Program-made: the position numbers and the translations under genes
Notes under the pieces: generated by a model
The model's database searches: none
What the model was told of the DNA's origin: nothing
The model's input: only the letters and a program-made list of their open reading frames with translations
DNA from: a virus
Length of the DNA: 64,000 nt
Strand: one strand, 5' to 3'
IMG/VR virus record: IMGVR_UViG_3300032229_000533
Coordinates: 118,340 to 182,339 of that record
Shown here: positions 18,170 through 33,968 of the stretch, piece by piece
Layout: each line of letters starts with the position of its first letter
Numbering within the stretch: the first letter of the stretch is position 1

Positions 18170-18172
18170 AGT

Positions 18173-18498: not shown

Positions 18499-18523
18499 AT
18501 TTACCTCAAACTATTTATATTAC

Positions 18524-19693: not shown

Positions 19694-19720
19694 AAAAACC
19701 CACCGATTGGTGGGTTTTTT
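19692..19720. terminator. Bidirectional intrinsic terminator
   Basis: A7-cccacc gatt ggtggg-T6 between convergent genes. Confidence 0.9.
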
Positions 19721-19738
19721 GTTTCAGTTAAAATCTAA

Positions 19739-19909: not shown

Positions 19910-20014
19910 AATTGTTTGTTTTGTTTTATTTATAAATTATTTTAATTGTTTCGTTATTGATTTAATAAGTATAGGTAAAGGTGAGATAATTGTCAATTAT
20001 TGGTAATTAATTTT

Positions 20015-21280
20015 TTAAATCATCCAAGAACTAACTTCTTCTAATGACTTGTAAGTTAATTCATTAAGAGAATTTAAAATTTCCTCAACGTTATTTGGGT
20101 CTACACCACCAATTGACATTCTAAACCATCCTTTATTTTCTTTTGAACCAAAATATTCAAAAGGTACTAACCCAATACCACATCTATTAATTAAAAATTT
20201 GGTATAACTTTCAATATTTGTAAATGATAAAGACTCACCCAAATAAATTGAAATATAGATTCCACCTTCAGGTCTTTGGTAATCAATACGGAATCCTTTA
20301 TCTTTTAATTCTTGGATTTTATCACATATTTTGTTTGAAATATCTGAATATTGTTTTGTTTTTGACTTAACAAATTCAACCATATCCTCATAATCATTTA
20401 GATATTTTGCAACAGCGTTTTGTTCTGGTTTAGGTGCCCAAGCTCCAATGTGCGAGAAAACTTCTGTCATCTTACCTATGATGTCCTGTGGACCAAACAT
20501 CCAACCAACTCTAATACCTGTTGCACATAATGATTTAGAAATACCATCCACACAAATCAAATAGTCACGGACTTCAGGACATAATGTTAATGGGTGAACA
20601 AATGAACCCTCAACAGTTAAGTCAGAGTATATTTGGTCAAAGAACAAATACAACGGTCTTGAACCTACCTGTGATTCTCTAATCTTATTCTCGTTTACTA
20701 CCAATTCACAGATACTCTTTAATACCTCAGGATTGATTACACGACCTGTTGGGTTTTGAGGAGAACAAATACAAATTAAAGATGTTTTGTCATTAATTGC
20801 CGTGTCAATATCTGACGCTGTTGGAAAAAACGAGTTCTCAGGTTTACATTCAATTTCTTGTTTAACCGCCCCATGTAAAAAACTATAGTGGTTGTTGTTC
20901 CAAGATGGAACAGGATAGATAACTCCATCACCGTCATTAACCAACGCTTTATAAACCGTATAGATTAACGGACGAACTCCACCACCAACTAATATCTCAT
21001 TTTCGGTATAATCAATACCTTGTCTTTTCTTTAGGTATTCACTAACCGATTGTCGTAAATTTAATTGACCTGCAGACAATGGATAATTGGTTAGGTTTTC
21101 ATTATAAGAATCAACAATGTAATTTTTTAGTTTTTCTGGGATTGGATTTATACTTGAATCAAAATCACCAATTGTTAAATTTTGGACTTTTTTTGTTTTT
21201 GAAATCTCTTTGATTTGTTGAGAGATTTTGATGATTTCAGAACCTACAATGTTGTTTCCTACGTGCGATAATTTTTTCAT
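20015..21280 (-). CDS. PLP-dependent aminotransferase class I/II
   Basis: CSPQNPTG, FDQIY, DGISKSLCATGIRVG (PLP lysine), FRMS. Confidence 0.9.
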   Translation of the reverse strand: MKKLSHVGNNIVGSEIIKISQQIKEISKTKKVQNLTIGDFDSSINPIPEKLKNYIVDSYNENLTNYPLSAGQLNLRQSVSEYLKKRQGIDYTENEILVGGGVRPLIYTVYKALVNDGDGVIYPVPSWNNNHYSFLHGAVKQEIECKPENSFFPTASDIDTAINDKTSLICICSPQNPTGRVINPEVLKSICELVVNENKIRESQVGSRPLYLFFDQIYSDLTVEGSFVHPLTLCPEVRDYLICVDGISKSLCATGIRVGWMFGPQDIIGKMTEVFSHIGAWAPKPEQNAVAKYLNDYEDMVEFVKSKTKQYSDISNKICDKIQELKDKGFRIDYQRPEGGIYISIYLGESLSFTNIESYTKFLINRCGIGLVPFEYFGSKENKGWFRMSIGGVDPNNVEEILNSLNELTYKSLEEVSSWMI

Positions 21281-21319
21281 GTTGCAAATGTAATACTTTA
21301 TTTTTGTTTTTCAAAATTT

Positions 21320-21408
21320 TGGCGGAAGGTGAGGGGCTCGAACCCTCGCGACTTTTACATCCTATCAGTTTAGCAAACTGACCCCTTCACCAACTTGGGT
21401 AACCTTCC
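21320..21408 (-). tRNA. tRNA-Ser(GCT), CCA encoded
   Basis: tcagt-ttGCTaa-actga anticodon arm, long variable arm, canonical T-loop. Confidence 0.95.
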
Positions 21409-21409
21409 A

Positions 21410-21730
21410 TTATTTTATTAACTCCAATAGAACATAAGTTAATTTATATCCTGTAAATGCCCCAAGAGCAGATGGGATTGGAAACACAATCATCTTACCT
21501 AAATCGGTAACATACTTTGGTCTGTTAACAATCTTACCCATAAAAAAATAATAGGTGATATATCCTAACAATACCGCCAAATCTGTCTTGGTTGCAATGA
21601 ATACAACTAATGTTGCACCTATAAATCCAAAGACAAAATTATCTCTAACTCCTTCCCATATTTCGTATGGGGTGGCATCTTTATACTCTTTAACAATTTT
21701 TTGAAATGATTTTCTATTTCTCTTAAACAT
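21410..21730 (-). CDS. Small membrane protein
   Basis: 106 aa with three hydrophobic stretches. Confidence 0.65.
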   Translation of the reverse strand: MFKRNRKSFQKIVKEYKDATPYEIWEGVRDNFVFGFIGATLVVFIATKTDLAVLLGYITYYFFMGKIVNRPKYVTDLGKMIVFPIPSALGAFTGYKLTYVLLELIK

Positions 21731-21745
21731 ACTCTAATTTTTTTG

Positions 21746-21819
21746 TCGGAATGGGTGGAATTGAACCACCGACCATTTGCGTATAAGGCAACCGCTTCTC
21801 ACCACTGAGCTACATTCCG
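21746..21819 (-). tRNA. tRNA-Ile(TAT)
   Basis: CGGAATG/CATTCCG acceptor; ttgc-ctTATac-gcaa anticodon arm; ggtgg-ttcaatt-ccacc T-arm. Confidence 0.88.
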
Positions 21820-21840
21820 TATCATACAAATATAAAAAAA

Positions 21841-21869
21841 ATCCCTCTGAATTTCAAACTCAGAGGGAT
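21841..21869 (-). terminator. Intrinsic terminator
   Basis: atccctctga/tcagagggat 10-bp stem followed by a T run on the minus strand. Confidence 0.8.
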
Positions 21870-21894
21870 AAATTATTTTTAATAAAAAATTATT

Positions 21895-22365
21895 TTATTT
21901 TAAGAATCTCAATTTATAAATAGTACTGTAAATTAATTCTTGAACAGTATCAATTTGATTTTGAATAAAAGACTCTTTAACTGACTTTCTATTTTTTTCA
22001 ATATTTTCATCTAACCCTTTAAAGTAAGTTATTAGTTGCTCTGTTGATTTATAATCAACCATTTTAATTGTTTTATATCCTGTTAACAAATCGTTTTTAC
22101 CTTGGTAGCTCTCAACAATTCCGTCAATTAGTTCAACAATCCCATCGTAATACGTACCTAATGCAGTATGTTCAGCAAATGATGATTGTGATTTTGTTTG
22201 CCAATGAAATACATGTGCCTGACTTCTTGAATGAAGTAATGTTGAAATCATATCAACAATATCCCCATCCTCAGCAATATCATCAGCAGTTTCTTTTTTT
22301 TCGGCTTCACTCAACTGTATTACTTTATACAATTGTTCTTTTGTCAATGTTACTCTTTTTTCCAT
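21895..22365 (-). CDS. Ferritin/Dps-like four-helix protein (DUF5856-like)
   Basis: Start moved to MEKRV at 22365 because the track start lies inside a tRNA. Motifs AHVFHWQT...HTALGTYYDG...ELIDGIVESYQG. Confidence 0.7.
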   Translation of the reverse strand: MEKRVTLTKEQLYKVIQLSEAEKKETADDIAEDGDIVDMISTLLHSRSQAHVFHWQTKSQSSFAEHTALGTYYDGIVELIDGIVESYQGKNDLLTGYKTIKMVDYKSTEQLITYFKGLDENIEKNRKSVKESFIQNQIDTVQELIYSTIYKLRFLK

Positions 22366-22403
22366 ACATATAAATACCTTGCCATTTGGAAAAAAATTAT
22401 TTG

Positions 22404-22475
22404 TACCGATGGGAAGAATTGAACTTCCGACAACTTGGATATGAATCAAGTGCTCTACCACTGAACTACATCGGC
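22404..22475 (-). tRNA. tRNA with CAT anticodon, probably elongator Met
   Basis: GCCGATG/CATCGGT acceptor; cttga-ttCATat-ccaag. Lacks the initiator GGG/CCC stem and the C4/C5 Ile2 pattern. Confidence 0.8.
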
Positions 22476-22480
22476 ATTAG

Positions 22481-22555
22481 TGGTTTCATAGGGACTCGAA
22501 CCCCAACGTCTTTTCGTCCGTAGCGAAATGTTTTATCCAATTAAACTATAAAACC
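22481..22555 (-). tRNA. tRNA-Arg(ACG)
   Basis: tttcg-ctACGga-cgaaa; its 5' 15 nt overlap the HNH ORF end. Confidence 0.88.
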
Positions 22556-23218
22556 ATTGTTGTATTTTTGATAATATTTAACCCATTTTCTAATTGCATT
22601 ATCACTAACATTATATTTTTTACCTGTCCCAACGTAACCAAACTTTTCAATCTCATCTATCAAATTGTTGTAGTCAGGTCTTTCTGTTTTTCGTCTATCT
22701 TTATAATATTCTTCTTTCTCCTTAGTAAAAATTTTTCTCATATCTTCTTTATATGTTTTACTTTTTGTGTTTTTACCACAGTGAGTTGGTAGAGTTGCAT
22801 TACAGTTTGGACAAACTATTCTTAAATTCTCAATCCTATTATCATTCCAAACCCCATTGATATGGTCAATAATTAACGACATCTTTTTTCCCATCCATTC
22901 CTCACCTTGACCACATAATTCGCAATTTCTTTTTTTGATACCTGTTTCATATAACCTTTCCTTCAATCGGCTCCTATTATATGAGGACCCTTCAGTTAGA
23001 ATATCATCTAATTGAATGGTTTTTTCTTTGGTTGATTGATTTAATTTTTCAATTCTAACTTCGTCAGGATTAAAGTGGTCTACATTTATATTATATTTTT
23101 TCAAATATTTTTTTAAGGTATTAAAATTACCTCCTGCAGCTCTTAACCCAAGTTTATGTAAACACTCTGTTTGTGTTTTAGAATTTTTAACAATTTCATC
23201 TAATTTAATTTTATCCAT
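22541..23218 (-). CDS. HNH homing-type endonuclease with flanking HTH-like segments
   Basis: CELCG...LIIDHING...DNRIENLRIVCPNCNA; C-terminal GKKYNVSDNAIRKW. Confidence 0.88.
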   Translation of the reverse strand: MDKIKLDEIVKNSKTQTECLHKLGLRAAGGNFNTLKKYLKKYNINVDHFNPDEVRIEKLNQSTKEKTIQLDDILTEGSSYNRSRLKERLYETGIKKRNCELCGQGEEWMGKKMSLIIDHINGVWNDNRIENLRIVCPNCNATLPTHCGKNTKSKTYKEDMRKIFTKEKEEYYKDRRKTERPDYNNLIDEIEKFGYVGTGKKYNVSDNAIRKWVKYYQKYNNGFIV

Positions 23219-23282
23219 AATTCGAACCTTTAATTATAAATATGTCGAACCATGTAAAAATTTATAGTAGAAATAAAAAAAG

Positions 23283-23353
23283 TTGTCCCTGGAGGATTCG
23301 AACCTCCACAATTTCCGTCAAAGGGAAATGTCCTGCCATTAGACGAAAGGACA
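23283..23353 (-). tRNA. tRNA-Gln(TTG)
   Basis: tttcc-ctTTGac-ggaaa; U1-A72. Confidence 0.93.
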
Positions 23354-23360
23354 ATTTGTG

Positions 23361-23442
23361 TGGGAGTAGTAGGACTCGAACCTACGAACTCAAAAGAGGT
23401 TTGATTTACAGTCAAATGCAGTTGCCGCTGTGCCATACTCCC
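23361..23442 (-). tRNA. tRNA-Tyr(GTA)
   Basis: tttga-ctGTAaa-tcaaa; long variable arm. Confidence 0.93.
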
Positions 23443-23447
23443 ATTAG

Positions 23448-23519
23448 CACGGATGGAGAATTACGATATCCCGACACCTAGTTTTGGAGACTAGTGCTCT
23501 GCCCCTGAGCTACATCCGT
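23448..23519 (-). tRNA. tRNA-Trp(CCA) with non-canonical T-loop
   Basis: ctagt-ctCCAaa-actag; perfect ACGGATG/CATCCGT acceptor; T-loop reads ATCGTAA. Confidence 0.8.
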
Positions 23520-23531
23520 ATTTTTTTTTTG

Positions 23532-23602
23532 AGGTCGGTATAGGATTTGAACCTATGTAAGCGGTTTTGCAGACCGACGCCTAACCACTCGGCCAACCGA
23601 CC
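23532..23602 (-). tRNA. tRNA-Cys(GCA)
   Basis: cggt-ctGCAaa-accg; discriminator U. Confidence 0.93.
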
Positions 23603-23608
23603 TTTTAG

Positions 23609-23683
23609 TGTCCCCGATGGGACTCGAACCCATGACTCCTTCATTAAAAGTGAAGTGCTCTAAACCAACTGAGCTACGAAGAC
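23609..23683 (-). tRNA. tRNA-Lys(TTT)
   Basis: cttca-ctTTTaa-tgaag. Confidence 0.93.
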
Positions 23684-23689
23684 ATTAAG

Positions 23690-23761
23690 TTGTCACGATA
23701 GGATTTGAACCTATGACCGCTTCCGTATCAGAGAAGAACTCTACCACTGAGTTACGTGACA
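23690..23761 (-). tRNA. tRNA-Ile(GAT)
   Basis: cttct-ctGATac-ggaag. Confidence 0.92.
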
Positions 23762-23768
23762 ATAAAAT

Positions 23769-24101
23769 TTATTGTGGTAAAAAAAACATGTTAACAATTA
23801 CATCCCAAAACCAATTTCTTGGAATTTCTTCACATTCAATTCTACCATTTTGAAAATACGTTGTTTTATAATACATTGTCGGTGACTTTTGAATTAAAAC
23901 CCTGTGTTTTGGAGTAAACAACATTGTTTCGGTTAATGATTCATATTCTTTGTCCCATTTTGCAAACACCTCATGCTCCGAACCTTCAATTATTATTTTT
24001 CCTATCTTACCTGTCTTCCATTCAACAATTTCAGTTTTTAATTCAAATCTCTGTGAATGTGATAATATTGGTAATAAAAGGAACAGAACAATTATTTTCA
24101 T
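23769..24101 (-). CDS. Small secreted protein
   Basis: 110 aa; N-terminal signal-peptide-like MKIIVLFLLLPILSHS. Confidence 0.65.
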   Translation of the reverse strand: MKIIVLFLLLPILSHSQRFELKTEIVEWKTGKIGKIIIEGSEHEVFAKWDKEYESLTETMLFTPKHRVLIQKSPTMYYKTTYFQNGRIECEEIPRNWFWDVIVNMFFLPQ

Positions 24102-24131
24102 TTTTTTATTTTTTTAATTTAAATAATATTG

Positions 24132-24214
24132 CGGAGGATGAGGGAATCGAACCCCCAAGGCTTTTACACCCAGCTGATTTCAAGTCAGTGTCCTCGTCCA
24201 TTCGGGCACCCTCC
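24132..24214 (-). tRNA. tRNA-Ser(TGA)
   Basis: ctga-ctTGAaa-tcag; long variable arm; discriminator G. Confidence 0.93.
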
Positions 24215-24247
24215 GTATAACCGACCTAGCTCGGTAAACACATCGGA

Positions 24248-24326
24248 TGGGGTGACTAACGGGAGTCGAACCCGCGACCTCTTGAACCACAATCAAGCGC
24301 TCTAAACCAACTGAGCTATAGCCAAC
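24248..24326 (-). tRNA. tRNA-His(GTG), G-1 and CCA encoded
   Basis: cttga-ttGTGgt-tcaag; G-1 opposite C73. Confidence 0.92.
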
Positions 24327-24330
24327 ATGT

Positions 24331-24470
24331 AAAAGGTAGGGTTGACTTTATCAGGAATCCAGTCTCACGACTTCACACACCATTAGAGAGTTGGGTATTA
24401 CTACCTATCCTTAGTGTGTACCCTTGCGTCACGTCTCTCCACGATTATCAACCTACGCATTTTACTACCA
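24331..24470 (-). ncRNA. Candidate structured ncRNA in tRNA array
   Basis: Two GNRA-capped hairpins (ggta-GTAA-tacc and agtc-GTGA-gact), acacac/gtgtgt stem, long-range gtaggttga/tcaaccctac pairing. Confidence 0.5.
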
Positions 24471-24474
24471 TTTG

Positions 24475-24574
24475 TAGTCAGGACAGGATTCGAACCTGTA
24501 ATGGTATTATACATTCCCATTTCCCCTATGATTGGGAGTGCCAATGGTTTATAAGCCAATTCCACCACCTGACT
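24475..24574 (-). ncRNA. tRNA-like element (100 nt) with non-canonical centre
   Basis: AGTCAGG/CCTGACT-A acceptor, Leu-like D-arm start, acagg-ttcgaat-cctgt T-arm; no canonical anticodon loop. Confidence 0.65.
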
Positions 24575-24965
24575 ATTTTATTAACCCCCACACCTCTTTA
24601 CAATACTTCTCATTCTCAACCGCCTCAATCTCCATCGGGTGATTCTCATACCCATACTTTTTCAACATCTTATAGTACTTGCTCGCCACAGGTTGTAATG
24701 TGTGAGTGTATTCGTGTAATGTTGTTGTAATCAAATCACTAACATTTTTACAATTATTTTTAAACACTATAATTGTATGAGTGTCGGGACGATATTCACC
24801 ATACTTCAAAAAGTCATCGTTTTTACTCTGAGATTTCACAATCGCTTTACAAAAACCTTTTCTTTTATTCACCCCAAACATAACCTCACAAATACCAATT
24901 GTTTTATCAACAATTTGTCTAATCTCTTTGTGTGTTAAAGTCTTCAAATTAGTGTTTATTCTCAT
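24573..24965 (-). CDS. HExxH zincin-like protein
   Basis: Start moved to MRINTN, after a TATCTTTG box; LHEYTH...HPMEIEA. Confidence 0.7.
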   Translation of the reverse strand: MRINTNLKTLTHKEIRQIVDKTIGICEVMFGVNKRKGFCKAIVKSQSKNDDFLKYGEYRPDTHTIIVFKNNCKNVSDLITTTLHEYTHTLQPVASKYYKMLKKYGYENHPMEIEAVENEKYCKEVWGLIK

Positions 24966-25029
24966 ATTATATCCCCGTTTTGTTACACAAAGATACGGAA
25001 TATTCCCCAAATCACCAAAAAAAGTTTTG

Positions 25030-25162
25030 TAGTCAAGGTCGGACTCGAACCGAATACCGTTCTTGACGGATTAGACAACCTTATAACGTCTCGCGTCCAA
25101 ATGGTTATGGACCGTGGTGTTTTTCGGACTTGGGTACCTTCCCGCATTACGCCCACTTGACT
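25030..25162 (-). ncRNA. tRNA-like element (133 nt) with expanded centre
   Basis: AGTCAAG/CTTGACT-A acceptor and tcgg-ttcgagt-ccga T-arm enclosing three small hairpins (gtcca/tggac, agac/gtct, ccgt/acgg). Confidence 0.6.
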
Positions 25163-25164
25163 AA

Positions 25165-25366
25165 CCCCAGTTGTTCGTTCATCTCGGAGATGGGTGCTCC
25201 TGCACGTGTTTCCACCCACGGGATGGTAGCTTTTCTCCTCGGTATTGTAGGACCGAGTGCCTGTTGAGCAACCATTGGCTACTAATGGTTTTGTTTACCC
25301 CCTTCACCAGCTTAATGGACTGGCTGCCATATCGGAAGTGGGGGTTTCCTGTTATTTCAGGACTTC
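25165..25366 (-). ncRNA. Candidate multi-hairpin ncRNA
   Basis: GC-rich against background; stems gaagt/acttc, tcctg/cagga, ccagt/gctgg, aaccatt/aatggtt, ctcggt/accgag and gggtg/caccc. Confidence 0.5.
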
Positions 25367-25367
25367 G

Positions 25368-25440
25368 TGGTAAGGGTTGGAATCGAACCAACGGCACAGG
25401 GATTTTCAGTCCCTTGCTCTACCTACTGAGCTACCATACC
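25368..25440 (-). tRNA. tRNA-Phe(GAA)
   Basis: aggga-ctGAAaa-tccct. Confidence 0.93.
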
Positions 25441-25446
25441 AAATTT

Positions 25447-25698
25447 GAGGTTGAGACCCTCTGTGTTGTAGTGTACGATTATGTTTTCCATAATTCAAGT
25501 AATGTCACTCATCTTTATATCTCCTTTCTCAAGGGAACAACACAATATTGTTGATAATGATGGAGTACCCGTCTCGCTCCAATCTTAAGTGCTTCTTCAG
25601 TTTTACGAGGTCCTCGGCACTGTCCTTTTCAGGGGGTGATGAATTCCAATTCCATTCTGAAGAGTCGACCTTCGTTGAATGGGGAAAACCATTATCAA
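25447..25698 (-). ncRNA. Candidate two-domain structured ncRNA
   Basis: Domain 1: 9-bp ttgataatg/cattatcaa stem (25551-9/25690-8), tcttcag/ctgaaga, ggag/ctcc. Domain 2: tgtgttgt/acaacaca stem with complementary ttgaga and tctcaa loop segments. Confidence 0.6.
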
Positions 25699-25758
25699 TT
25701 CCTTTCGTCGGGGGAGTAGGTCACCAACTTCTTTAACCCCTACTCCCCCACATTATTG

Positions 25759-25830
25759 TAGTCGGTACGGGAATCGAACCCGTCTTTTATCCGTGAAAGG
25801 GATATGTCCTAACCGATAGACTAACCGACC
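25759..25830 (-). tRNA. tRNA-Glu(TTC)
   Basis: tatcc-ctTTCac-ggata. Confidence 0.93.
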
Positions 25831-25837
25831 AATTGTG

Positions 25838-25910
25838 TAGTCCCTGTAGGACTCGAACCTACGACTGCTTGCATGTAAGGCAAGAGCTCTACCAACTGAG
25901 CTAAAGGACT
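25838..25910 (-). tRNA. tRNA-Val(TAC)
   Basis: cttgc-ctTACat-gcaag. Confidence 0.93.
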
Positions 25911-25920
25911 ATTTTTTTCC

Positions 25921-25935
25921 AACATGTCAAAGACC
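25921..25935 (-). promoter_or_regulatory. boxA-like antitermination site
   Basis: GGTCTTTGACATGTT, 10 nt upstream of tRNA-Val; near-identical copy at 29269-29282. Confidence 0.6.
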
Positions 25936-25990
25936 TATTTTGTTTTTCAACGATACAAAGGTAATACATTTTTTTTAAAGTTTTGGACTA

Positions 25991-26032
25991 AAAACAAAAA
26001 ACCCCAAACTTTTTTTCAAAGTTCGGGGTTTT
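25991..26032 (-). terminator. Attenuator terminator 1
   Basis: aaaaccccgaacttt-gaaaa-aaagtttggggtttt followed by tgttttt. Confidence 0.85.
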
Positions 26033-26083
26033 AATATCTTGTTATTTCTAACTTGTTATTAACGTACTACCTTATATCCGAAC

Positions 26084-26167
26084 TCAATTTTGCATATGAC
26101 GATACCAGCTACAGAATACCTCTTGTTGCTTAATAACCGACGACATATGTTTAATTGATGTTCTCAT
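26084..26167 (-). CDS. Leader peptide 1 (27 aa) of tRNA array 1
   Basis: Hand translation MRTSIKHMSSVIKQQEVFCSWYRHMQN*. Upstream TTTG-N19-TATTATTG promoter. Stop codon overlaps gagttcgg, which is complementary to the terminator 5' arm. Confidence 0.75.
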   Translation of the reverse strand: MRTSIKHMSSVIKQQEVFCSWYRHMQN

Positions 26168-26230
26168 TGTTTTATAATTATTACAATAATACGAAAAGTT
26201 TCGTATTTGTCAAATATTTTTTTGTTTTAG

Positions 26231-26303
26231 TACCCCAAGAGGGATTCGAACCCTCAAAAACTTGTTCCTAAGACAAGCGTGTATACCGTTCCACCATCGG
26301 GGT
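26231..26303 (-). tRNA. tRNA-Leu(TAG) without long variable arm
   Basis: cttgt-ctTAGga-acaag; only 5 nt (ttttt) between anticodon and T arms. Confidence 0.88.
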
Positions 26304-26304
26304 G

Positions 26305-26400
26305 TTCATCACATCGTACAGGCATTCTACTCCCAGCTCCGAGGAATTGTATCTAACTTAGCCCTTCTCCACCGCTGTATGGGTACCTGAGGATATGATT
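26305..26400 (-). ncRNA. Candidate small structured RNA between tRNAs
   Basis: GC-rich 95-nt spacer with tacag/ctgta closing stem; the fold is not resolved. Confidence 0.35.
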
Positions 26401-26403
26401 TTG

Positions 26404-26477
26404 TATCCCCGATTGGATTCGAACCAATGACCCACAGCTTAGAAGGCTGTTGCTCTATCCAACTGAGCTACGGAGAC
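26404..26477 (-). tRNA. tRNA-Arg(TCT)
   Basis: acagc-ctTCTaa-gctgt. Confidence 0.93.
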
Positions 26478-26486
26478 ATATTTTTG

Positions 26487-26574
26487 TGGTACCGAGAGCG
26501 GGACTCGAACCCGCACGAACATTACTGTCCAAGGGATTTTAAGTCCCTCGTGTCTACCTTTTCACCACCTCGGC
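26487..26574 (-). tRNA. tRNA-Leu(TAA), CCA encoded
   Basis: aggga-ctTAAaa-tccct; long variable arm. Confidence 0.95.
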
Positions 26575-26622
26575 GTCTTGTTTTGTTGTACAAATATAGG
26601 AAATAAAATTGGATACTACAAC

Positions 26623-27357
26623 TTATAGAGAAAAATTTTCTTCAAATAATGTATTTGAATCATTTTCTTCTGTGTTGTAAGTGTGTTCTAATTCAACGGT
26701 TGAATTGTTGAAATTAAAGATGAATCGTCCGTCAGAACCTTCGTTGATTTCCCAACCACCGAAATGACTTTCAAGTTGACTATAACACCAATCTTCAATT
26801 GAGGCAGGAACTGCATCACTTGTTTCATCAAATGAACTTTCAATATAACCAGAATCTCCACCACCATTGTAACTTAGAGTTAGGATACCATCACTTGGAA
26901 CTTCAACATCTTGCATGTCTTCTTCCATCCACTTATCAAATCTTGATTTATCCTCGTCAGAATCATACTCAACTGTATTACCATCACCTCTATCGTAATA
27001 TGAATAATTGTGAGTTACGGTAAGTTCTTTTCTCTTACAATCAATTTCAATATCAATGTTTTGATAACTCATTGTATCCATATCAGGAGATTCATATGCA
27101 CCCTCAGAAATAACATGATTCATTACTTTTTTAAGAATTGGTGTCAATCCGTCAGGTAACTCTGCTCTATAGTTATTTTCAAAATGTTGTATACGTCTCC
27201 AATCAATGTCATCATGTGACAAGTCATATTGGTCTGAATCCAATTCAATACTAATTACTCCTTCTGTCATACCCAATGACGCAAGATAGTTACAAGTTCT
27301 GTTTAAGTATTTTTTTTCGTCTGGGGTTAAAATTTCTGCCATATTAATAAATATCAA
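26623..27357 (-). CDS. Hypothetical protein (DUF6878-like C-terminal domain)
   Basis: SYNGGGDSGYIE...GGWEINEGSDG motif, recalled from that family. Confidence 0.6.
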   Translation of the reverse strand: MIFINMAEILTPDEKKYLNRTCNYLASLGMTEGVISIELDSDQYDLSHDDIDWRRIQHFENNYRAELPDGLTPILKKVMNHVISEGAYESPDMDTMSYQNIDIEIDCKRKELTVTHNYSYYDRGDGNTVEYDSDEDKSRFDKWMEEDMQDVEVPSDGILTLSYNGGGDSGYIESSFDETSDAVPASIEDWCYSQLESHFGGWEINEGSDGRFIFNFNNSTVELEHTYNTEENDSNTLFEENFSL

Positions 27358-27701
27358 TCTTCTATTTTAAGTGTCCTCAACATCCATTGAGGTCGTTTAT
27401 TTTCTAAAATATTGTTCATCCATTCTTTTGCTGATGGTAAATAATTGTTACAATCTTCTTTTACGTGTTGTTCTCCAACATAACGAGTGTAAACTATTTT
27501 TCCATCACTATTAATGAATTCTGGTCCAAACCTTTTTTCCATTTCAAAAATCCCTTCGCTATGATGTCTGAACATTCTATGTAAAGAATCTCCCATCCAA
27601 CCTTTGGTTTCATCTAACCATTCGTGTAAATGAATATAATCTTCAGGTTTACCACCAAACTTTTTTGCGGAACTTTTTGCATGTATATTAGGATGTGCCA
27701 T
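27354..27701 (-). CDS. His-rich hypothetical protein (DUF6915-like)
   Basis: HPNIHAKSSAKKFGG...HEWLDETK...HRMFRHHSEGIF. Confidence 0.65.
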   Translation of the reverse strand: MAHPNIHAKSSAKKFGGKPEDYIHLHEWLDETKGWMGDSLHRMFRHHSEGIFEMEKRFGPEFINSDGKIVYTRYVGEQHVKEDCNNYLPSAKEWMNNILENKRPQWMLRTLKIED

Positions 27702-27719
27702 ATTTTATTTATTTATTTG

Positions 27720-27793
27720 TGGAGAAGGAGGGACTCGAACCCGCGACTTCTTGAATGCAAATCAAGCGCTCTAGCCAACTGAGCTACATCCCC
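27720..27793 (-). tRNA. tRNA-Ala(TGC)
   Basis: cttga-ttTGCat-tcaag; G3-U70. Confidence 0.93.
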
Positions 27794-27801
27794 AAACACT
27801 T

Positions 27802-27918
27802 TTAGTATAAACCATCTGTAATTGATTTATAGATAAGTACAACCATTCCGATTGCCCACGCACTTACCGCTAATATAATTACGGTGTCTTTCAGTGTAAT
27901 TTTCTTTAACAACTTCAT
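27802..27918 (-). CDS. 38-aa membrane peptide
   Basis: Hand translation MKLLKKITLKDTVIILAVSAWAIGMVVLIYKSITDGLY; TATCTTTG box upstream. Confidence 0.55.
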   Translation of the reverse strand: MKLLKKITLKDTVIILAVSAWAIGMVVLIYKSITDGLY

Positions 27919-27991
27919 AATGTTTTTTTAATGGTTTTCAAAATAGGTTACAAAGATAAATAAAAAGGTTTAATTACCAAAAATATTTTTG

Positions 27992-28065
27992 AGCCTCCTG
28001 TCGGATTCGAACCAACGACATTCGCATTACAAGTGCGACGCTCTGGCCAACTGAGCTAAGGAGGC
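27992..28065 (-). tRNA. tRNA-Thr(TGT)
   Basis: tcgca-ctTGTaa-tgcga. Confidence 0.93.
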
Positions 28066-28157
28066 GTTTTCGGTAAAGAATAGTCACGACCACCTCTGTT
28101 TCTCTTTACCTGTTATTCAATCGTGGCACAATGTGGTACGACCCTAACTGAATCTTG

Positions 28158-28231
28158 CGGTTCGGACGGGACTCGAACCCGCGACCTCCTGCGTGACAGG
28201 CAGGCATTCTAACCAGCTGAACTACCGAACC
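28158..28231 (-). tRNA. tRNA-Asp(GTC)
   Basis: cctgc-ctGTCac-gcagg. Confidence 0.95.
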
Positions 28232-28235
28232 AAAA

Positions 28236-28442
28236 TTCCCCACCTGAGATTCCAGTGAGTGGATTTTTCTTCTGTTTTCCTATTGAAAACACGAGACGGT
28301 CTTACCCGCACATAAACGTCAAACATACTCGGTGGGTTTGTTACGCCCAGGCTCCGACGAACCCCCTCTCTAAAGTCGTGGAAGGCTACAACTATACCAT
28401 TATTAAGAAACGGTACCAAATCTATTGGGTATCTCTTACCCC
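28236..28442 (-). ncRNA. Candidate ncRNA (about 205 nt) between tRNA-Gly and tRNA-Asp
   Basis: GC-rich spacer with no credible ORF; several short stems (tacc/ggta, ttttc/ggaaa, ccac/gtgg). Confidence 0.35.
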
Positions 28443-28445
28443 TTG

Positions 28446-28518
28446 AGCGGTAGACAGGTCTCGAACCTGCGACTTCGTACTTGGAAGGAACGCGCTCTAC
28501 CAACTGAGCTACTACCGC
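28446..28518 (-). tRNA. tRNA-Gly(TCC)
   Basis: cgttc-ctTCCaa-gtacg; its 5' 7 nt overlap the HNH ORF end. Confidence 0.9.
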
Positions 28519-29048
28519 ATTATTAAATTGTCATGTATTTCAAAATGACAATTTGAACAAACTAACATACACTTATCAACTTCATTTTTTAAGTTTTCAA
28601 AACTAAGACTTTTTCCTGATATCTGAAAATCTTTTTCTTTTGGGGTTTTATGATGAAATTGTAATGCTCTATCACATTTATTATACCCACATATTTCACA
28701 TTTTCCACCCTTATATTCTATCAATTCACGTTTTTTTCTTTTTCTCCACGATATTACATTTTCTGAATTTGTTTTAGGAATTTTATCTCTTGTAATAACG
28801 TATTTTTTAACTGTTTCAAATGCATGTCCCTTAAGTTTTGCAACTTTTTTCAAAGAACCAATTTCATCATACAAAACTTGTAACTCTTTCTTTTCCTCGT
28901 CACTCAAAGACACATCCTCACCTCCAAGTTTATGTAAGTTACAATGATAAGATACAGTTGACATAGCACAATTCAATTCGTTACAAATTTCTTTATACGT
29001 TTTACCTGATTTTCTTAATTCTATAATTTTTTCGGAGTATCTACCCAT
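28512..29048 (-). CDS. HTH plus HNH homing-type endonuclease
   Basis: N-terminal HTH (GKTYKEICNELNCAMSTVSYH); GGKCEICGY...LQFHH...KCMLVCSNCHFEIH. Confidence 0.85.
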   Translation of the reverse strand: MGRYSEKIIELRKSGKTYKEICNELNCAMSTVSYHCNLHKLGGEDVSLSDEEKKELQVLYDEIGSLKKVAKLKGHAFETVKKYVITRDKIPKTNSENVISWRKRKKRELIEYKGGKCEICGYNKCDRALQFHHKTPKEKDFQISGKSLSFENLKNEVDKCMLVCSNCHFEIHDNLIMR

Positions 29049-29093
29049 AATTAATATTTTAATTAATAAATATTAGACACTTCGTAAAAAATG

Positions 29094-29177
29094 CTGGTAC
29101 GGTAGGATTCGAACCTACGATGTGGTCACCCAGTCAGGTTAACAGCCTGATGCTCTCGGCCTCTAAGCGACGTACCA
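29094..29177 (-). tRNA. tRNA-Asn(GTT) with long variable arm
   Basis: tcagg-ctGTTaa-cctga; U1-A72, G73; 15-nt variable region with a tgg-GTGA-cca hairpin. Confidence 0.88.
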
Positions 29178-29183
29178 ATTATG

Positions 29184-29256
29184 TAGAGTAGACAGGGGTC
29201 GAACCTGCACGCACTTGCTCCCAAAGCAAGGGACCTACCAATTGGTCAACTACTCT
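29184..29256 (-). tRNA. tRNA-Pro(TGG)
   Basis: cttgc-ttTGGga-gcaag. Confidence 0.9.
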
Positions 29257-29268
29257 ATTTTATTTCCC

Positions 29269-29282
29269 ACATGTCAAAGAAC
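29269..29282 (-). promoter_or_regulatory. boxA-like antitermination site
   Basis: GTTCTTTGACATGT, 12 nt upstream of tRNA-Pro and just after a TTTG-N20-TATATTTG promoter. Confidence 0.65.
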
Positions 29283-29310
29283 ACTACAAATATACAAAAG
29301 AAAACCTTTA

Positions 29311-29349
29311 AAAACAAAAAACCCCGAACTTTTTATGTTCAGGGTTTTT
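29311..29349 (-). terminator. Attenuator terminator 2
   Basis: aaaaaccctgaac-ataaaaa-gttcggggttttt followed by tgtttt; similar in sequence to terminator 1. Confidence 0.85.
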
Positions 29350-29373
29350 AAATTTTGGCTTCTTAGTATTCCA

Positions 29374-29463
29374 TTATTTAAAGTCTGAACATGAGCATAG
29401 AGTGCCTAACCCGTCATTTGTCGGTGTTAAATTCGCTCTATCAAGTGTGTTCAAATTTTTCAT
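29374..29463 (-). CDS. Leader peptide 2 (29 aa) of tRNA array 2
   Basis: Hand translation MKNLNTLDRANLTPTNDGLGTLCSCSDFK*. TATTTATA upstream. Internal atgttcag (29385-92) is complementary to the terminator 5' arm. Confidence 0.78.
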   Translation of the reverse strand: MKNLNTLDRANLTPTNDGLGTLCSCSDFK

Positions 29464-29505
29464 AATGTTTCTATAAATATAGTCAAAAATTTAAAAAATC
29501 AACCC

Positions 29506-29766
29506 CTACAGGTATTTTTTGAATAAATCTTCCAAAGTTTTTTCATCTTCTTGTGAAAGACGGTAATATTTTTCTTTCAATAGGTCCATTTTCTCAATGA
29601 AAACTCCCTCTAAAACTCCAATGTTTTTTTCAGTATCTTCTACTGCGGATGGACTAATATGTCCTCCCTCAATTAGAGCTTCAATAAGTTCTTTAATGTC
29701 TCGTTTGTTACATGCTGATACAAACTCATCGGCATCAACGTCTACGTATGTGTCAAATTCTGGCAT
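29506..29766 (-). CDS. Hypothetical protein
   Basis: Start moved to MPEFDT, downstream of a TATATTTG box. Confidence 0.65.
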   Translation of the reverse strand: MPEFDTYVDVDADEFVSACNKRDIKELIEALIEGGHISPSAVEDTEKNIGVLEGVFIEKMDLLKEKYYRLSQEDEKTLEDLFKKYL

Positions 29767-29851
29767 GATATGTTTTTTTTTTAAATTGTACAATGCAAAT
29801 ATAAGGACTATTTTGGAACATTCCAACTATTTATTAAGATAAATTATTGAA

Positions 29852-31018
29852 ATGAAGTTAAACAGAAAAAACATATTAAAAGAGGGTTTATTTACAAATT
29901 TACTTAAAACTTCAGTTAAAACATTACCATCAACTTTCAAATATCTTGATGATATTACAAGATTAATGACCCCTGAAGTCAAAGCAATCGCCAACACAAC
30001 TACACCAGCAATTCTGAATGTAAGTGAAGGAACTGCAAAAAGATTTTATAAAGATTTTTTTCTATCAACAAACCAATTGTCAAGAAATGCTACTAAAGTT
30101 TCAATGGAAGGGTTAACTCAAAAAGGTATTCAAAATTTAATAGGATTGAAAAAAAATATATCTGACTTATTAAACTTGACTAATGTGTCTCCTGGTGCAA
30201 AAATAGATGCAAAAAACCTAATAAATGTTGTACATAGTACAAAGAATGGGGTTGATAATTTAGTTAATGAGTTGAAATTAGTTAAACCAAATAGTGCGGA
30301 TTTAACAGTTGCAAAAGAAATGCAGACACAAATTGATGATGTTATTTCTAAAAATAATACAATTTTTAAAAATGCGACCATGGGGACATCTACATCAACT
30401 AACCCAAAACCAGTTGTTAAACCAAAAGTCGAGCCAAAATCACTAACTAAACCAAAAGTTGAACCTAAACCAATAGTTAAACCAAAAGTTGAGCCAAAAC
30501 CAACGGTTAAAACAAAAGTTGAACCAAAAGTTAAATCATCATCGCCTAAAGTTAAAATACCTGTGGGAAACTTCAACGAAGTCCAAATTATAAGAGGTTC
30601 GTATAACCTTCCAACACAAAAATCTGCACGTTTTGTTGACCAACTGCTTGAAAAATCTTTCTATGAGGGGTTTGGAAAACGTCACGATATGTGGTCAGAT
30701 GAAATTATAAATCAATTAACCCCTGAAACAAAAAGTTATTTGTTACAATTGAAAAAAAATCTTGAAAAAGAAGGTTTGTTGTATACAAATGGATTTACAC
30801 AAGAATTTAAAAGGTTACCAAAAACGGCAGATGAAGAAATAAAATTACTTTCTGGAAATCATTGGGGTGGACTTGGAAGAAGAATGGGTGCACAAAATTC
30901 AATCAAATCTTTACCTATCCCAAGCAATAGTGTAATTCAAAATTTATTAGACAAGACAATGCAATCATCCAAGAAAGAAGAGATTTTGCAACTTTATAAA
31001 ACTTTGTTTAATAAGTAA
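29852..31018 (+). CDS. Basic hypothetical protein with PKVEPK repeats
   Basis: 388 aa; TATTTATT upstream. Confidence 0.7.
   Translation: MKLNRKNILKEGLFTNLLKTSVKTLPSTFKYLDDITRLMTPEVKAIANTTTPAILNVSEGTAKRFYKDFFLSTNQLSRNATKVSMEGLTQKGIQNLIGLKKNISDLLNLTNVSPGAKIDAKNLINVVHSTKNGVDNLVNELKLVKPNSADLTVAKEMQTQIDDVISKNNTIFKNATMGTSTSTNPKPVVKPKVEPKSLTKPKVEPKPIVKPKVEPKPTVKTKVEPKVKSSSPKVKIPVGNFNEVQIIRGSYNLPTQKSARFVDQLLEKSFYEGFGKRHDMWSDEIINQLTPETKSYLLQLKKNLEKEGLLYTNGFTQEFKRLPKTADEEIKLLSGNHWGGLGRRMGAQNSIKSLPIPSNSVIQNLLDKTMQSSKKEEILQLYKTLFNK
30401..30530 (+). repeat. Degenerate 30-bp coding tandem repeat (about 4 copies)
   Basis: aaaccaaaagt(c/t)ga(g/a)cc(a/t)aaa at 30-nt periodicity, encoding KPKVEPKxxV. Confidence 0.8.
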
Positions 31019-31175
31019 ATTTAATTGTATCCCCTTCTGAATAACGAATACCTGAGAAAATAACACCTGTTTGTGTTGTGTCACCCAAAGACTTAACTTC
31101 GTACTTGTATTGTCCGTTGTCTACTGTTTGACAACACAATACCAAAAATAGTTTAATTCCAATTATTGTTTTCAT
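31008..31175 (-). CDS. Small secreted or lipo-peptide (55 aa)
   Basis: Hand translation MKTIIGIKLFLVLCCQTVDNG...; ATGA overlap with the upstream ORF. Confidence 0.5.
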   Translation of the reverse strand: MKTIIGIKLFLVLCCQTVDNGQYKYEVKSLGDTTQTGVIFSGIRYSEGDTIKFTY

Positions 31176-31462
31176 TTTGTCAATAACATTAAAATTTTCT
31201 CTTTTGCTTCTTCAGTTGTGGAGTTATTTCGTCCACCAATATTCCACTCAATTTCTTCATCCATCCCAATTACTCGGCGATATTTCCAATCATAAACGGT
31301 AATGACTTCAGCGTTATCCAATTCTCTAATCCATTCCATTGTAACTTTTCCGTCACTACTTCTACCATTGGTCATTTCACCCAATGATTTGATTAATTGA
31401 TTTGGTGTCGCTTTAAATGTGCTTCCGTGAAAACTCGTTCCGTTTGCGCTTGCTGTTGGCAT
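31172..31462 (-). CDS. Hypothetical phage protein
   Basis: MPTASANGTSFHG...SDGKVTMEW...YDWK...EWNIGG. Confidence 0.7.
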   Translation of the reverse strand: MPTASANGTSFHGSTFKATPNQLIKSLGEMTNGRSSDGKVTMEWIRELDNAEVITVYDWKYRRVIGMDEEIEWNIGGRNNSTTEEAKEKILMLLTK

Positions 31463-31510
31463 GTGTAACATAATTTGTTTTTATTAAGGATACAAAGATA
31501 ATATTTTTTT

Positions 31511-31897
31511 CTAACTTGCCAACTCCTGATTTAACTTTTTTTCCAAACCTGAAATAATATATGATGCCGTCATGTAGTTGGTTGCAAGTGGTGTGTTATA
31601 TACATTACAAATCCTTAACAACATATTCACATCAACTTGGTGGGGATGAACCTCCAATGGGTCAATAAAGAACACAACCCCTGAGATTTCACCATCGGCA
31701 ATCATTGATGCAATTTGGGCGTCACCACCAAGTGGTCCTGACTTCATACATTCAACATCCAATCCCGCGTGTTCAATATGTTTTCCTGTGGTACCTGTCG
31801 CAATAACCTCAACCCTTTTGAAAAAATCCAACCTTTTCATAACAAAGGCAACCATGTCAGCCTTCTTTCCATCGTGAGCAATAACAGCAATTTTCAT
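31511..31897 (-). CDS. mgsA: Methylglyoxal synthase
   Basis: IAVIAHDGKK, ATGTTG, SGPLGGDAQI, FFIDPL..HPHQVDV..LLRIC. Confidence 0.95.
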   Translation of the reverse strand: MKIAVIAHDGKKADMVAFVMKRLDFFKRVEVIATGTTGKHIEHAGLDVECMKSGPLGGDAQIASMIADGEISGVVFFIDPLEVHPHQVDVNMLLRICNVYNTPLATNYMTASYIISGLEKKLNQELAS

Positions 31898-31899
31898 AA

Positions 31900-32205
31900 T
31901 TATTTTTGTTTTTCGTGAATTGAATTCTTACAATTTCCTTTGTGAGTCCCCCAAGTAAAATGACTATTTCCTGGTGAAACTACAATATATTCACATCCTT
32001 CTAAAGTGTAAATTTGGTAATATCTATCGTATGGTTCTGTAGAGGTACCAAGTTGTTTAATTTCAACAGGTTGTGATACCGTGTTTGGTTCAGGTTCCTT
32101 TTTAATATTAAAGTTACAACCTGATAATACTGTCATTAAAATCATTGATAGGATGATTATCAATATTCCTGCGGACAATCGTTTCATTACTTTTTCGTTA
32201 TACAT
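31900..32205 (-). CDS. Small lipoprotein
   Basis: Hydrophobic signal peptide ending in LSG-C. Confidence 0.7.
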   Translation of the reverse strand: MYNEKVMKRLSAGILIIILSMILMTVLSGCNFNIKKEPEPNTVSQPVEIKQLGTSTEPYDRYYQIYTLEGCEYIVVSPGNSHFTWGTHKGNCKNSIHEKQK

Positions 32206-32220
32206 ATTTTAAAATTTTTG

Positions 32221-32294
32221 TGGACCCTGCAGGATTTGAACCTGCGACCATCACATTATGAGTGTGCCGCTCTGACCGTCTGAGCTAAGGGTCC
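32221..32294 (-). tRNA. tRNA-Ile2(CAT), lysidine type
   Basis: caca-ctCATaa-tgtg; acceptor GGACCCT with C4-G69/C5-G68, the TilS determinants; closely resembles bacterial ileX. Confidence 0.8.
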
Positions 32295-32458
32295 ATTGGA
32301 ATGTTTAGAATAACACCAAATCTCCGTTGATGTTATCCCAATCATCTGAAACTGGTGACATTACAACAATGGTTGTATCTTCAGTTTCTTCTTGGGTTTT
32401 GATTGTTGGTTCGTTTTTCATGTTGCAAATATATAACATTTAAATATATCACACAAAT

Positions 32459-32872
32459 TTATTCTACGGTGTGTTCCCATTGAACTCTAACACAATTTTG
32501 AGGTAACCTATGAATGTGTCTGTAATTGTTAATATACCCCATCATATTAGCACTTCCAATTGCATTTGCTGAGTGTACAACAACATCAACAACAGGACTT
32601 CCATCCATCCATTTTTCAACCAACCATTTGGTACAATCCATACCAGTTTTTTCGGTGATGTTGTCGTAGTTCAATTCGTAATTGTGGTAAACATTCTTAT
32701 GCCATTCAACCATTGCACTATGACCCAAGTCATGGTCCAAAGAAATTAATTCAATATTTTCCAAACCAATTTCATTAATTTTATCTACGAATTGCTCGTA
32801 GTCTCTAACAACAACCCAATTCTCCACATCAACTGGAGTTCTTACGTCATCTAAGTAAATTCTTTTTTTCAT
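32459..32872 (-). CDS. Cyclic-phosphate-processing receiver-domain protein
   Basis: Start moved to MKKRIYLDD; LDDVR, ISLDHDLG, TGMDC, VHSAN motifs. Confidence 0.8.
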   Translation of the reverse strand: MKKRIYLDDVRTPVDVENWVVVRDYEQFVDKINEIGLENIELISLDHDLGHSAMVEWHKNVYHNYELNYDNITEKTGMDCTKWLVEKWMDGSPVVDVVVHSANAIGSANMMGYINNYRHIHRLPQNCVRVQWEHTVE

Positions 32873-33046
32873 AACACAAATATAAAATAAAATTTGGAGT
32901 TTCAAAACTCTTTTAAGATATTTATAGTTATGATGACAAACAAAACCTCAGTGGTCTTTTGGAATTGAAGTCATATAATGAGAACTTAGGTGTAAAGAGG
33001 ATTGGAAATCTCTAACCATAAACAATCTAAATCAATACAATATTCA

Positions 33047-33077
33047 AAAGGGGTGAAAAATTTTTCATCCCTTTTTT
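33047..33077 (+). terminator. Intrinsic terminator upstream of HNH gene
   Basis: aaaaggggtgaaa..tttcatccctttttt. Confidence 0.75.
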
Positions 33078-33121
33078 GTTTTTTGTATGAAAATAACTTA
33101 TTCTTTTAAAAAACTATAAAA

Positions 33122-33610
33122 ATGAGCGGAGTATTAGTGCTGAATTATGATTATACCCCATTGAATATAACTTCAACAAGGAGGGGGTTTGTACTTGTAG
33201 ATAAAGGTAAAGCGGAGATTGTAAAATCTGACGAGAACCCTATTATTGCAGGTTTTAACACCTATGTTAGACCTTTAATTATTAGACTATTAAGTTATAT
33301 TAAACATAATACAAGGAATATTAGGGTTAACAGAACAAGGATTTATAAAAGGGACAATCATGAATGTGTTTATTGCGGGTCAAAAAAACAATTAACTTTA
33401 GACCACGTAATACCTAAATCAAGAGGAGGACGTAATGAATGGACTAATTTGGTGACATGTTGTTTTAAATGTAACCTTAGAAAAGGAAACAAGACTCCTG
33501 AAGAAGCAAAAATGACAATGAACGTAAAACCATATGTTCCGTCATTGTTAAATGAAAATGGATTATTAAATAAAGTGTGGAATGATTATCAACAATCCTT
33601 TGTTTATTAG
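33122..33610 (+). CDS. HNH endonuclease (McrA-like)
   Basis: CVYCG...LTLDHVIPKSRGG...WTNLVTCCFKCNLRKG. Confidence 0.9.
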   Translation: MSGVLVLNYDYTPLNITSTRRGFVLVDKGKAEIVKSDENPIIAGFNTYVRPLIIRLLSYIKHNTRNIRVNRTRIYKRDNHECVYCGSKKQLTLDHVIPKSRGGRNEWTNLVTCCFKCNLRKGNKTPEEAKMTMNVKPYVPSLLNENGLLNKVWNDYQQSFVY

Positions 33611-33648
33611 AAAAAATTACTAAAATTATAAAAAAGAAAAATTAAAAA

Positions 33649-33945
33649 ATGGAAAATTACACAAACCCAGAACAAACAGGGCAAGAACAAAACCCTCAAG
33701 ATTTACTAAACGCATCAATGTTGTTTGCAAGAGCATTAGGTCTTATTTTTAAAGAAGACGAAGGTATTGTTGTTGATGTTAATGGAGATGTTAAGTTGGG
33801 AGACGATGTTAAAAAAGTAATCGTATTCAGACAAAACAACCAAATTCACATTTTCAAATGTGATGAAGACGTTGAAGAAGGTATGGCAGTTAATTTAGGT
33901 CCAAACCCTGAAGAAGCACAAGAACCTGAAACAACACAAGAATAA
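33649..33945 (+). CDS. Acidic hypothetical protein
   Basis: 98 aa ORF. Confidence 0.65.
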   Translation: MENYTNPEQTGQEQNPQDLLNASMLFARALGLIFKEDEGIVVDVNGDVKLGDDVKKVIVFRQNNQIHIFKCDEDVEEGMAVNLGPNPEEAQEPETTQE

Positions 33946-33968
33946 AATTTAAACTTTAGTATTATTGA

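Follow-up and report, generated by a model that had tools for sequence, protein, structure and literature searches.

Results

Two tRNA arrays lie behind leader-terminator cassettes

The window analyzed here, 64,000 nucleotides (nt) of viral DNA spanning positions 118,340 to 182,339 of the IMG/VR record IMGVR_UViG_3300032229_000533, contains two arrays of transfer RNA (tRNA) genes, A and B, each headed by a cassette that resembles a transcription attenuator (Table 1). Both cassettes are on the minus strand and consist of a short open reading frame (ORF) of 27 codons (leader A) or 29 codons (leader B), an 8-bp antiterminator and an intrinsic terminator, after which the tRNAs begin. The leaders' start context is A-rich. 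A scan of the whole record for cassettes of this type returned only A and B. A preliminary description, made from the DNA letters, had placed the ORFs, terminators and arrays where we locate them and had reported an antiterminator overlapping the ORF end; indeed, this strand occupies codons 24–26 of leader B and runs across the UGA stop of leader A. The boxA elements it mentioned were recovered as boxA-like pattern matches ahead of both arrays. Absent from that description was the Bacteroidota -7 promoter-like motif that stands right after each terminator.

The amino-acid set earlier assigned to array A is unchanged, but a 188-codon ORF, another terminator and a promoter-like site (21834–21827) separate the array from two tRNAs counted as members, Ile(UAU) and Ser(GCU). 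In the relatives L006 and L007 (homologous loci carry L numbers) these two tRNAs are contiguous with the array. The genes downstream of the terminators are tRNAs with HNH and DUF insertions, not biosynthetic enzymes or synthetases. Rfam models run over positions 18000–34000 detected tRNAs, including tRNA-Trp of array A at 23448–23519, and neither a T-box nor any other known RNA family.

Each leader lists the amino acids of its own array

Residues 3–22 of leader B and 4–26 of leader A had been said to use only, and all of, the amino acids served by the array that follows, with core Arg codons written as AGA in B and CGU in A, and we find precisely this. The objection that such windows were chosen post hoc is removed by a window set regardless of composition, from codon 4 to 4 codons before the antiterminator, with odds taken from the genome's own amino-acid frequencies. 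In this blind window the cores of A and B contain zero off-array residues and miss zero array residues, and the joint odds of containing only and all of the array amino acids are 8.2e-7 for B and 1.0e-8 for A. Together the two leaders cover all 20 amino acids.

Leader composition follows tRNA content across homologous loci

About 650 loci were gathered via a neighboring protein and via terminator or boxA patterns, and cassettes were called by a detector blind to peptide content, which uses a terminator, a downstream tRNA, a short ATG ORF at a set distance and an antiterminator duplex. The detector misses some cassettes, whereby a few arrays are merged or truncated and the measured match is lowered. 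There are 164 distinct leaders in homologous position; match statistics are based on 88 closed cassettes with complete arrays, forming 41 leader families at 45% identity. Across these families, 0.77 of core residues belong to the leader's own array, compared to 0.42 ± 0.03 for permuted arrays (top of 20,000 permutations, 0.52), a comparison that does not yield a clean probability because this window's terminator pattern was part of how the loci were found and the families share ancestry. Likewise, 0.86 of array amino acids are present in the leader versus 0.48 ± 0.03 after permutation. The match is found only in the ATG frame (0.815 in frame 0, 0.40 in +1 and 0.35 in +2). Relatives' leaders sample up to 17 amino acids, and narrow leaders precede equally narrow arrays, with Lys/Tyr in L577, Arg/Ser in L156, His/Pro/Gln in L437 and Leu/Arg in L022. 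Leader B is kept in relatives with a variable sequence; generally, residue order is shuffled and content kept, and short motifs are conserved within leader families.

The correspondence extends to codon boxes. Where an array carries an Arg tRNA for one box, all core Arg codons fall in that box (9 AGR-only and 8 CGN-only families, 0 cross cases), and the Ser codon box agrees with the array 36 to 7. G-ending codons are enriched 2.6-fold (96.7 versus 37.3 expected, the background being this genome only, where such codons are rare). These codons are read through wobble by U34 tRNAs, as carried in the arrays, and their enrichment suggests that tRNA species would be sensed rather than amino acids as such.

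Leaders usually change along with moved or lost tRNAs. In L589, tRNA-Pro has moved from block B to a third cassette, and Pro is gone from leader B and gained by the new leader; the second leader of this locus lacks Lys, Trp and Tyr together with the corresponding tRNAs. In L597 and L601 a separate, Leu- and Arg-rich leader precedes the Leu-Arg-Leu block. L615 has no tRNA for Ala, Val, Lys or Arg(ACG), and the cores of its leaders are without Ala, Val, Lys and Arg, while in L639 Asp and Ala are missing from tRNAs and leaders alike. On a marker tree these gain and loss cases occupy separate branches, L615 being sister to a full-array phage. For family A, 234 of 272 leader/tRNA cells agree, compared to 178 ± 9 expected (p 5e-5). 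Both the 41 families and these cases bear out the co-variation at homologous loci that the preliminary description had proposed as a check.

The match ends a ribosome footprint before the antiterminator

The in-array match is 0.82–0.94 from 12 to 4 codons before the antiterminator (0.86 at -4) and drops to 0.65, 0.47 and 0.32 at -3, -2 and -1, the background being near 0.40. Control codons at these last positions would be useless because a ribosome paused there would cover the antiterminator. This ending of the match, about one ribosome footprint ahead of the antiterminator, is the most mechanism-specific result. The antiterminator pairing itself has been kept through sequence change, as the leader end prefers its own arm across 51 distinct terminator arms: the own arm is the best partner in 25 of 51 and in the top tenth in 42 of 51. 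In a model of the nascent RNA ending at the terminator loop, the antiterminator has a probability of ~0.97 at most core ribosome positions. A trp-like 1:2 helix is seen in this window's folds.

Related cassettes reside in Flavobacteriaceae chromosomes

One Flavobacteriaceae genome carries a 16-tRNA array behind two tandem leader-terminator cassettes, with 12 of the array amino acids in the first core and all 13 in the second, Ile being the sole extra residue. Genes for PrfH, two RtcB proteins and two RlaP-family proteins lie upstream of this array. A separate leader-terminator cassette heads the rtcB-prfH pair, and no tRNA follows it. Strong DNA matches occur in ~40 of 301 Flavobacteriaceae genomes, and tandem-type leaders are borne by 19 loci that have 8 tRNAs or more, several on 3–4.9 Mb contigs; such arrays often adjoin rtcB-prfH. 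The bacterial leaders carry 10–20 residue types, with an in-array fraction of 0.71 versus 0.64 ± 0.02 (p 1.5e-4) and a coverage of 0.87 versus 0.78. Many bacterial arrays have decayed, some to 1–3 tRNAs, with both leaders persisting. Among L709, L712, L716, L725, L729, L733 and L734, several have an ORF of 170–195 amino acids between the second cassette and the tRNAs, and some have decayed arrays. No cassette was present at housekeeping tRNA clusters in 16 regions of five Bacteroidota genomes, and the bacterial cassette had no plasmid match.

Three cassettes also occur on a 375-kb contig (G002:C16; L303, L650 and L651) binned in a Bacteroidota metagenome-assembled genome, one of His/Ser/Tyr/Leu type, one of Phe/Pro type and one with a block of 21 tRNAs. 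Next to the Leu tRNAs is a gene resembling class I aminoacyl-tRNA synthetases, and an RNA ligase is also present. This contig looks like a jumbo phage. The window's terminase found no match on it.

The phage and the surroundings of the arrays

The record, that of a lake phage, is 182 kb long, 61% complete and 32.6% GC. Among its genes are those for ribosomal protein bS21, a terminase of T4-like type and a Gp23-type capsid protein. T4-like Bacteroidetes phages that encode bS21 are described as having the bS21 gene near terminase and capsid genes, 31–34% GC and many tRNAs, and their freshwater members as genomes of 293–331 kb with Bacteroidetes as predicted hosts (PMC9723584). The present record has bS21 near the terminase, a Gp23-type capsid gene, and a GC content and size (at 61% completeness) that agree with this group, so it is probably a phage of this type with a Bacteroidota host. 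The accessible part of that report counts tRNAs and contains nothing on their control (PMC9723584). No cultured relative emerged: the marker protein had no match among 50,697 phage records, the terminase had one (28%), and DNA-level matches were confined to tRNAs and HNH genes. Neither a phage RNA polymerase nor a sigma70 domain was found in the record, whose incompleteness means that absence is not implied.

The 25 tRNA genes found in this record are all within the window and on the minus strand. The tRNA region is flanked by genes for a methylglyoxal synthase (31511–31897, minus; over the NCBIfam cut-off) and a PLP-dependent aminotransferase (20015–21280, minus), both kept in relatives. A tRNA-Met(CAU) at 32220–32294 (minus) lies upstream of leader B and outside both gated arrays, as in most relatives. 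It may be the initiator tRNA; a leader that itself depends on this tRNA to start could not gate it.

HNH endonuclease genes sit in both arrays, that at 28512–29048 ending within tRNA-Gly and that at 22541–23218 (minus) within tRNA-Arg(ACG), and each is preceded by a TATTTAT motif. Genome-wide, 43 of the 158 long ORFs have this motif, a candidate phage promoter element, no more than 45 nt upstream. Two tRNA-like RNAs lie within array A (24475–24574 and 25030–25162, minus), their acceptor ends related and their interiors enlarged. The first reaches 30.5 bits against the tRNA model, and its fold is a cloverleaf-like multiloop; the second has no Rfam match. Two long, G + C-richer non-coding spacers on the minus strand, 25447–25700 (Glu-Phe) and 28230–28440 (Gly-Asp), have no Rfam match and may be structured RNAs.

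Table 1 Features of the two cassettes, their arrays and related loci (window coordinates unless a contig or locus is named)
Feature	Coordinates	Strand	Remarks
TATTTAT motif, candidate phage promoter element	29473-29479	-	10 nt before leader B; putative function
Leader peptide B, 29 codons	29374-29463	-	core codons 4-20 only Pro, Asn, Gly, Asp, Thr, Ala, Leu, Arg(AGA)
Antiterminator strand B (codons 24-26)	29385-29392	-	pairs with 29342-29335; co-variation
Intrinsic terminator B	29317-29349	-	13-bp stem and U tract
Bacteroidota -7 promoter-like motif past terminator B	29287-29294	-	possible basal input; pattern match only
boxA-like site before tRNA-Pro	29271-29280	-	pattern match; present in many homologous cassettes too
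Array B	26230-29256	-	Pro(UGG), Asn(GUU), Gly(UCC), Asp(GUC), Thr(UGU), Ala(UGC), Leu(UAA), Arg(UCU), Leu(UAG)
Inserts in array B	28512-29048; 27354-27701; 26623-27342	-	HNH gene; DUF6915; DUF6878
sigma70-like promoter match (11/12) before leader A	26186-26213	-	such matches not above chance in region
Leader peptide A, 27 codons	26084-26167	-	core codons 4-24 only array A's 13 amino acids; Arg as CGU
Antiterminator strand A	26078-26085	-	overlaps UGA stop; pairs with 26026-26019
Intrinsic terminator A	25998-26032	-	15-bp stem and U tract
Bacteroidota -7 promoter-like motif past terminator A	25956-25963	-	pattern match only
boxA-like site before tRNA-Val	25924-25933	-	pattern match
Array A	22403-25910	-	Val, Glu, Phe, His, Ser(UGA), Ile(GAU), Lys, Cys, Trp, Tyr, Gln, Arg(ACG), Met; inserted ORFs and two tRNA-like RNAs
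Ile(UAU) and Ser(GCU) tRNAs	21320-21819	-	array A members in relatives; here past further terminator and promoter-like site
TATTTAT sites in tRNA region	29479-29473, 29072-29066, 27353-27347, 23242-23236	-
bS21 gene	G000:C1:116864-117019		directly upstream of window; bS21 score over cut-off; 2.8 kb from terminase gene
Flavobacteriaceae chromosomal island	L670:4700-10700 (G003:C11), L705-L726		RlaP x2, RtcB x2, PrfH, tandem leader-attenuators, tRNA array, Band-7 gene, ADP-ribosylglycohydrolase

Discussion

Each cassette has the parts of a trp-type attenuator, that is, a short upstream ORF with matched control codons, an intrinsic terminator, a co-varying and mutually exclusive antiterminator, and footprint spacing between the last control codons and the switch. 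On this comparative evidence we consider it likely, with a probability of roughly 0.86, that each is a ribosome-mediated transcription attenuator with a tRNA block as its output. RNA polymerase would transcribe the leader with a translating ribosome coupled behind it. When all needed tRNAs are plentiful and charged, the ribosome would reach the last codons and cover the antiterminator strand, the terminator hairpin would form, and transcription would end before the array. If any needed tRNA were scarce, uncharged or cut, the ribosome would pause in the core, and the free antiterminator strand could capture the 5´ arm of the terminator before its 3´ arm is made. With the terminator blocked, polymerase would enter the array, possibly aided by boxA. 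Each leader would then act as an OR gate over 8 (B) or 13 (A) amino acids, the two leaders splitting the code.

Several observations weigh against this attenuator, or against parts of it. When folding is computed at equilibrium with the ribosome masked, no switch is seen: the full terminator prevails at every ribosome position, so the switch must depend on kinetics. The nascent-RNA model gives an antiterminator probability of only ~0.42 at codons 15–19 of leader A, and its fall near the antiterminator is built in by the footprint assumption. The 1:2 helix is not conserved, as a swap test over 47 leaders placed 6 of 47 in the top tenth, not above chance. Promoter-like -7 sites, recognized by pattern match only, stand past both terminators and within the arrays, and the attenuator is probably one input beside internal promoters. 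On the comparative side, the permutations remove shared ancestry incompletely, Leu codon boxes match the array poorly, and the family B signal is weak (146 of 165 cells versus 140.6, p 0.017), the array of this family varying little. The leaders of L598, L640 and L641 hold Ala though no tRNA-Ala was detected, L634 and L635 are the reverse of this exception, and decayed arrays retain leaders (L579, L725 and L733). Ribosome-mediated attenuation, as put forward in the preliminary description, is supported by co-variation, frame and position, with the amendments that it would work only kinetically, would probably share control with internal promoters and would not be restricted to phages.

Other explanations account for parts of these data. 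The same attenuator might serve as a general gauge of translation speed, responding to antibiotics, ribosome damage or ribosome competition, with the amino-acid match secondary. The joint coverage of all 20 amino acids by the two leaders, the many residue types and modest match of the bacterial leaders (0.71 versus 0.64), and the similar cassettes that head rtcB-prfH with no tRNA following are all consistent with a gauge of this kind; it would not lead one to expect content specific to a block, the fidelity of Arg boxes or the rewriting of leaders as tRNAs move, and phage leaders of two or three residue types precede arrays of exactly those tRNAs (L577, L156 and L437). We regard it as unlikely. 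Similarly improbable, if anything slightly more so, is a leader that acts post-transcriptionally or marginally, the terminators insulating, internal promoters driving the arrays, and the leader affecting RNA processing, stability or Rho. The -7 motifs beyond the terminators and within the arrays, together with the dominance of the terminator at equilibrium, would fit such an arrangement, but an insulator needs neither an antiterminator that changes in step with the terminator arm, as seen across 51 arm sequences, nor a codon match that stops a footprint away from it.

The peptides could instead act in trans, as small regulators or toxins whose function dictates their composition. A trans role is reported for the leader peptide peTrpL (PMC7298713), and the leader families here do conserve short motifs; however, residue order is shuffled and content kept, and that content tracks the neighboring tRNAs down to the codon box, which makes a trans function very improbable. 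Finally, chance ORFs viewed through windows picked after the sequence had been seen would explain the original observation and little more: blind windows, permutations, the frame control and 164 distinct leaders stand against them, the family permutations and frame control refute them, and their probability is negligible.

As to the signal sensed by the likely attenuators, the chromosomal copies offer a clue. In Bacteroidota, PrfH rescues ribotoxin-damaged and stalled ribosomes (10.1101/2025.01.09.632186), and in Anabaena long tRNA arrays are induced together with rtcB under translation stress (PMC8421152). Given these roles, the proximity of the bacterial cassettes to rtcB-prfH points to RNA or tRNA damage, and the attenuators would respond to functional tRNA being lost and not to amino-acid starvation as such, which extra tRNA would not be expected to cure. 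We lean, with some reserve, towards a widespread and so far undescribed logic shared by Bacteroidota and their phages, whereby codon-matched multivalent attenuators would detect the loss of specific functional tRNAs, for example to anticodon nucleases, and replace that block. The tandem versions of the hosts would serve spare tRNA arrays and the RtcB-PrfH repair operon, so that each leader may list the tRNAs under attack.

Attenuators of amino-acid operons (trpL, hisL, leuL and pheL; the multivalent thrL and ilv; Corynebacterium ilvB-II, PMC10272879) have in common with the cassettes a short ORF enriched in control codons, competition between antiterminator and intrinsic terminator, and footprint spacing. 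They differ from the phage cassettes in that their output is biosynthetic enzymes, not tRNA genes, and in that their leaders sample 1–3 amino acids rather than 8–13 (up to 17 in relatives). The phage cassettes are further set apart by the lack of a conserved 1:2 helix in our analysis and by their occurrence in phages. In Escherichia coli, the pheST attenuator with its pheM leader controls a synthetase by ribosome-mediated attenuation and senses one amino acid; it supplies a component needed for charged tRNA, as the cassettes would, although this is a synthetase and not the tRNA itself. T-box riboswitches are also terminator/antiterminator switches that read tRNA charging, but they bind tRNA directly and have no translated leader, whereas the cassettes have a leader ORF and no T-box detected by Rfam.

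The cyanobacterial trn operon and bacterial L-arrays under TrcR, the latter reported from Bacteroidetes too, are silent spare tRNA arrays that are induced by translation stress and co-regulated with rtcB (PMC8421152, PMC10272220). TrcR, an RHH repressor, acts by binding DNA at direct repeats in the promoter, and this control has no codon specificity, unlike the codon-matched leaders described here, and the words "attenuat" and "leader" are absent from PMC8421152. Phage tRNAs have been proposed as a counter-defense against host tRNA depletion (PMC10264068); the proposed purpose, replacing cut or depleted host tRNAs, is shared, and on-demand, tRNA-specific control of phage tRNA genes does not appear in the accessible part of that work. 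Searches of the open literature, subscription journals being outside their coverage, turned up no tRNA genes under an attenuator. What is known is the mechanism; its application to tRNA arrays, with 8–17 control amino acids, was not found there.

For decades it has been asked why phages carry tRNAs; the main answers are codon compensation and the replacement of host tRNAs that have been depleted. If a tRNA block is switched on only while its codons are being read slowly, this would argue for on-demand replacement and would make the question testable by simple reporters. Such a switch would also extend attenuation from enzymes to tRNA genes and from 1–3 to 13 or more control amino acids. The chromosomal copies beside rtcB-prfH give a testable model for the induction of RNA repair in Flavobacteriaceae, and with it a host-side experimental system although the phage is uncultured. 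The leaders themselves could be programmable sensors for tRNA damage.

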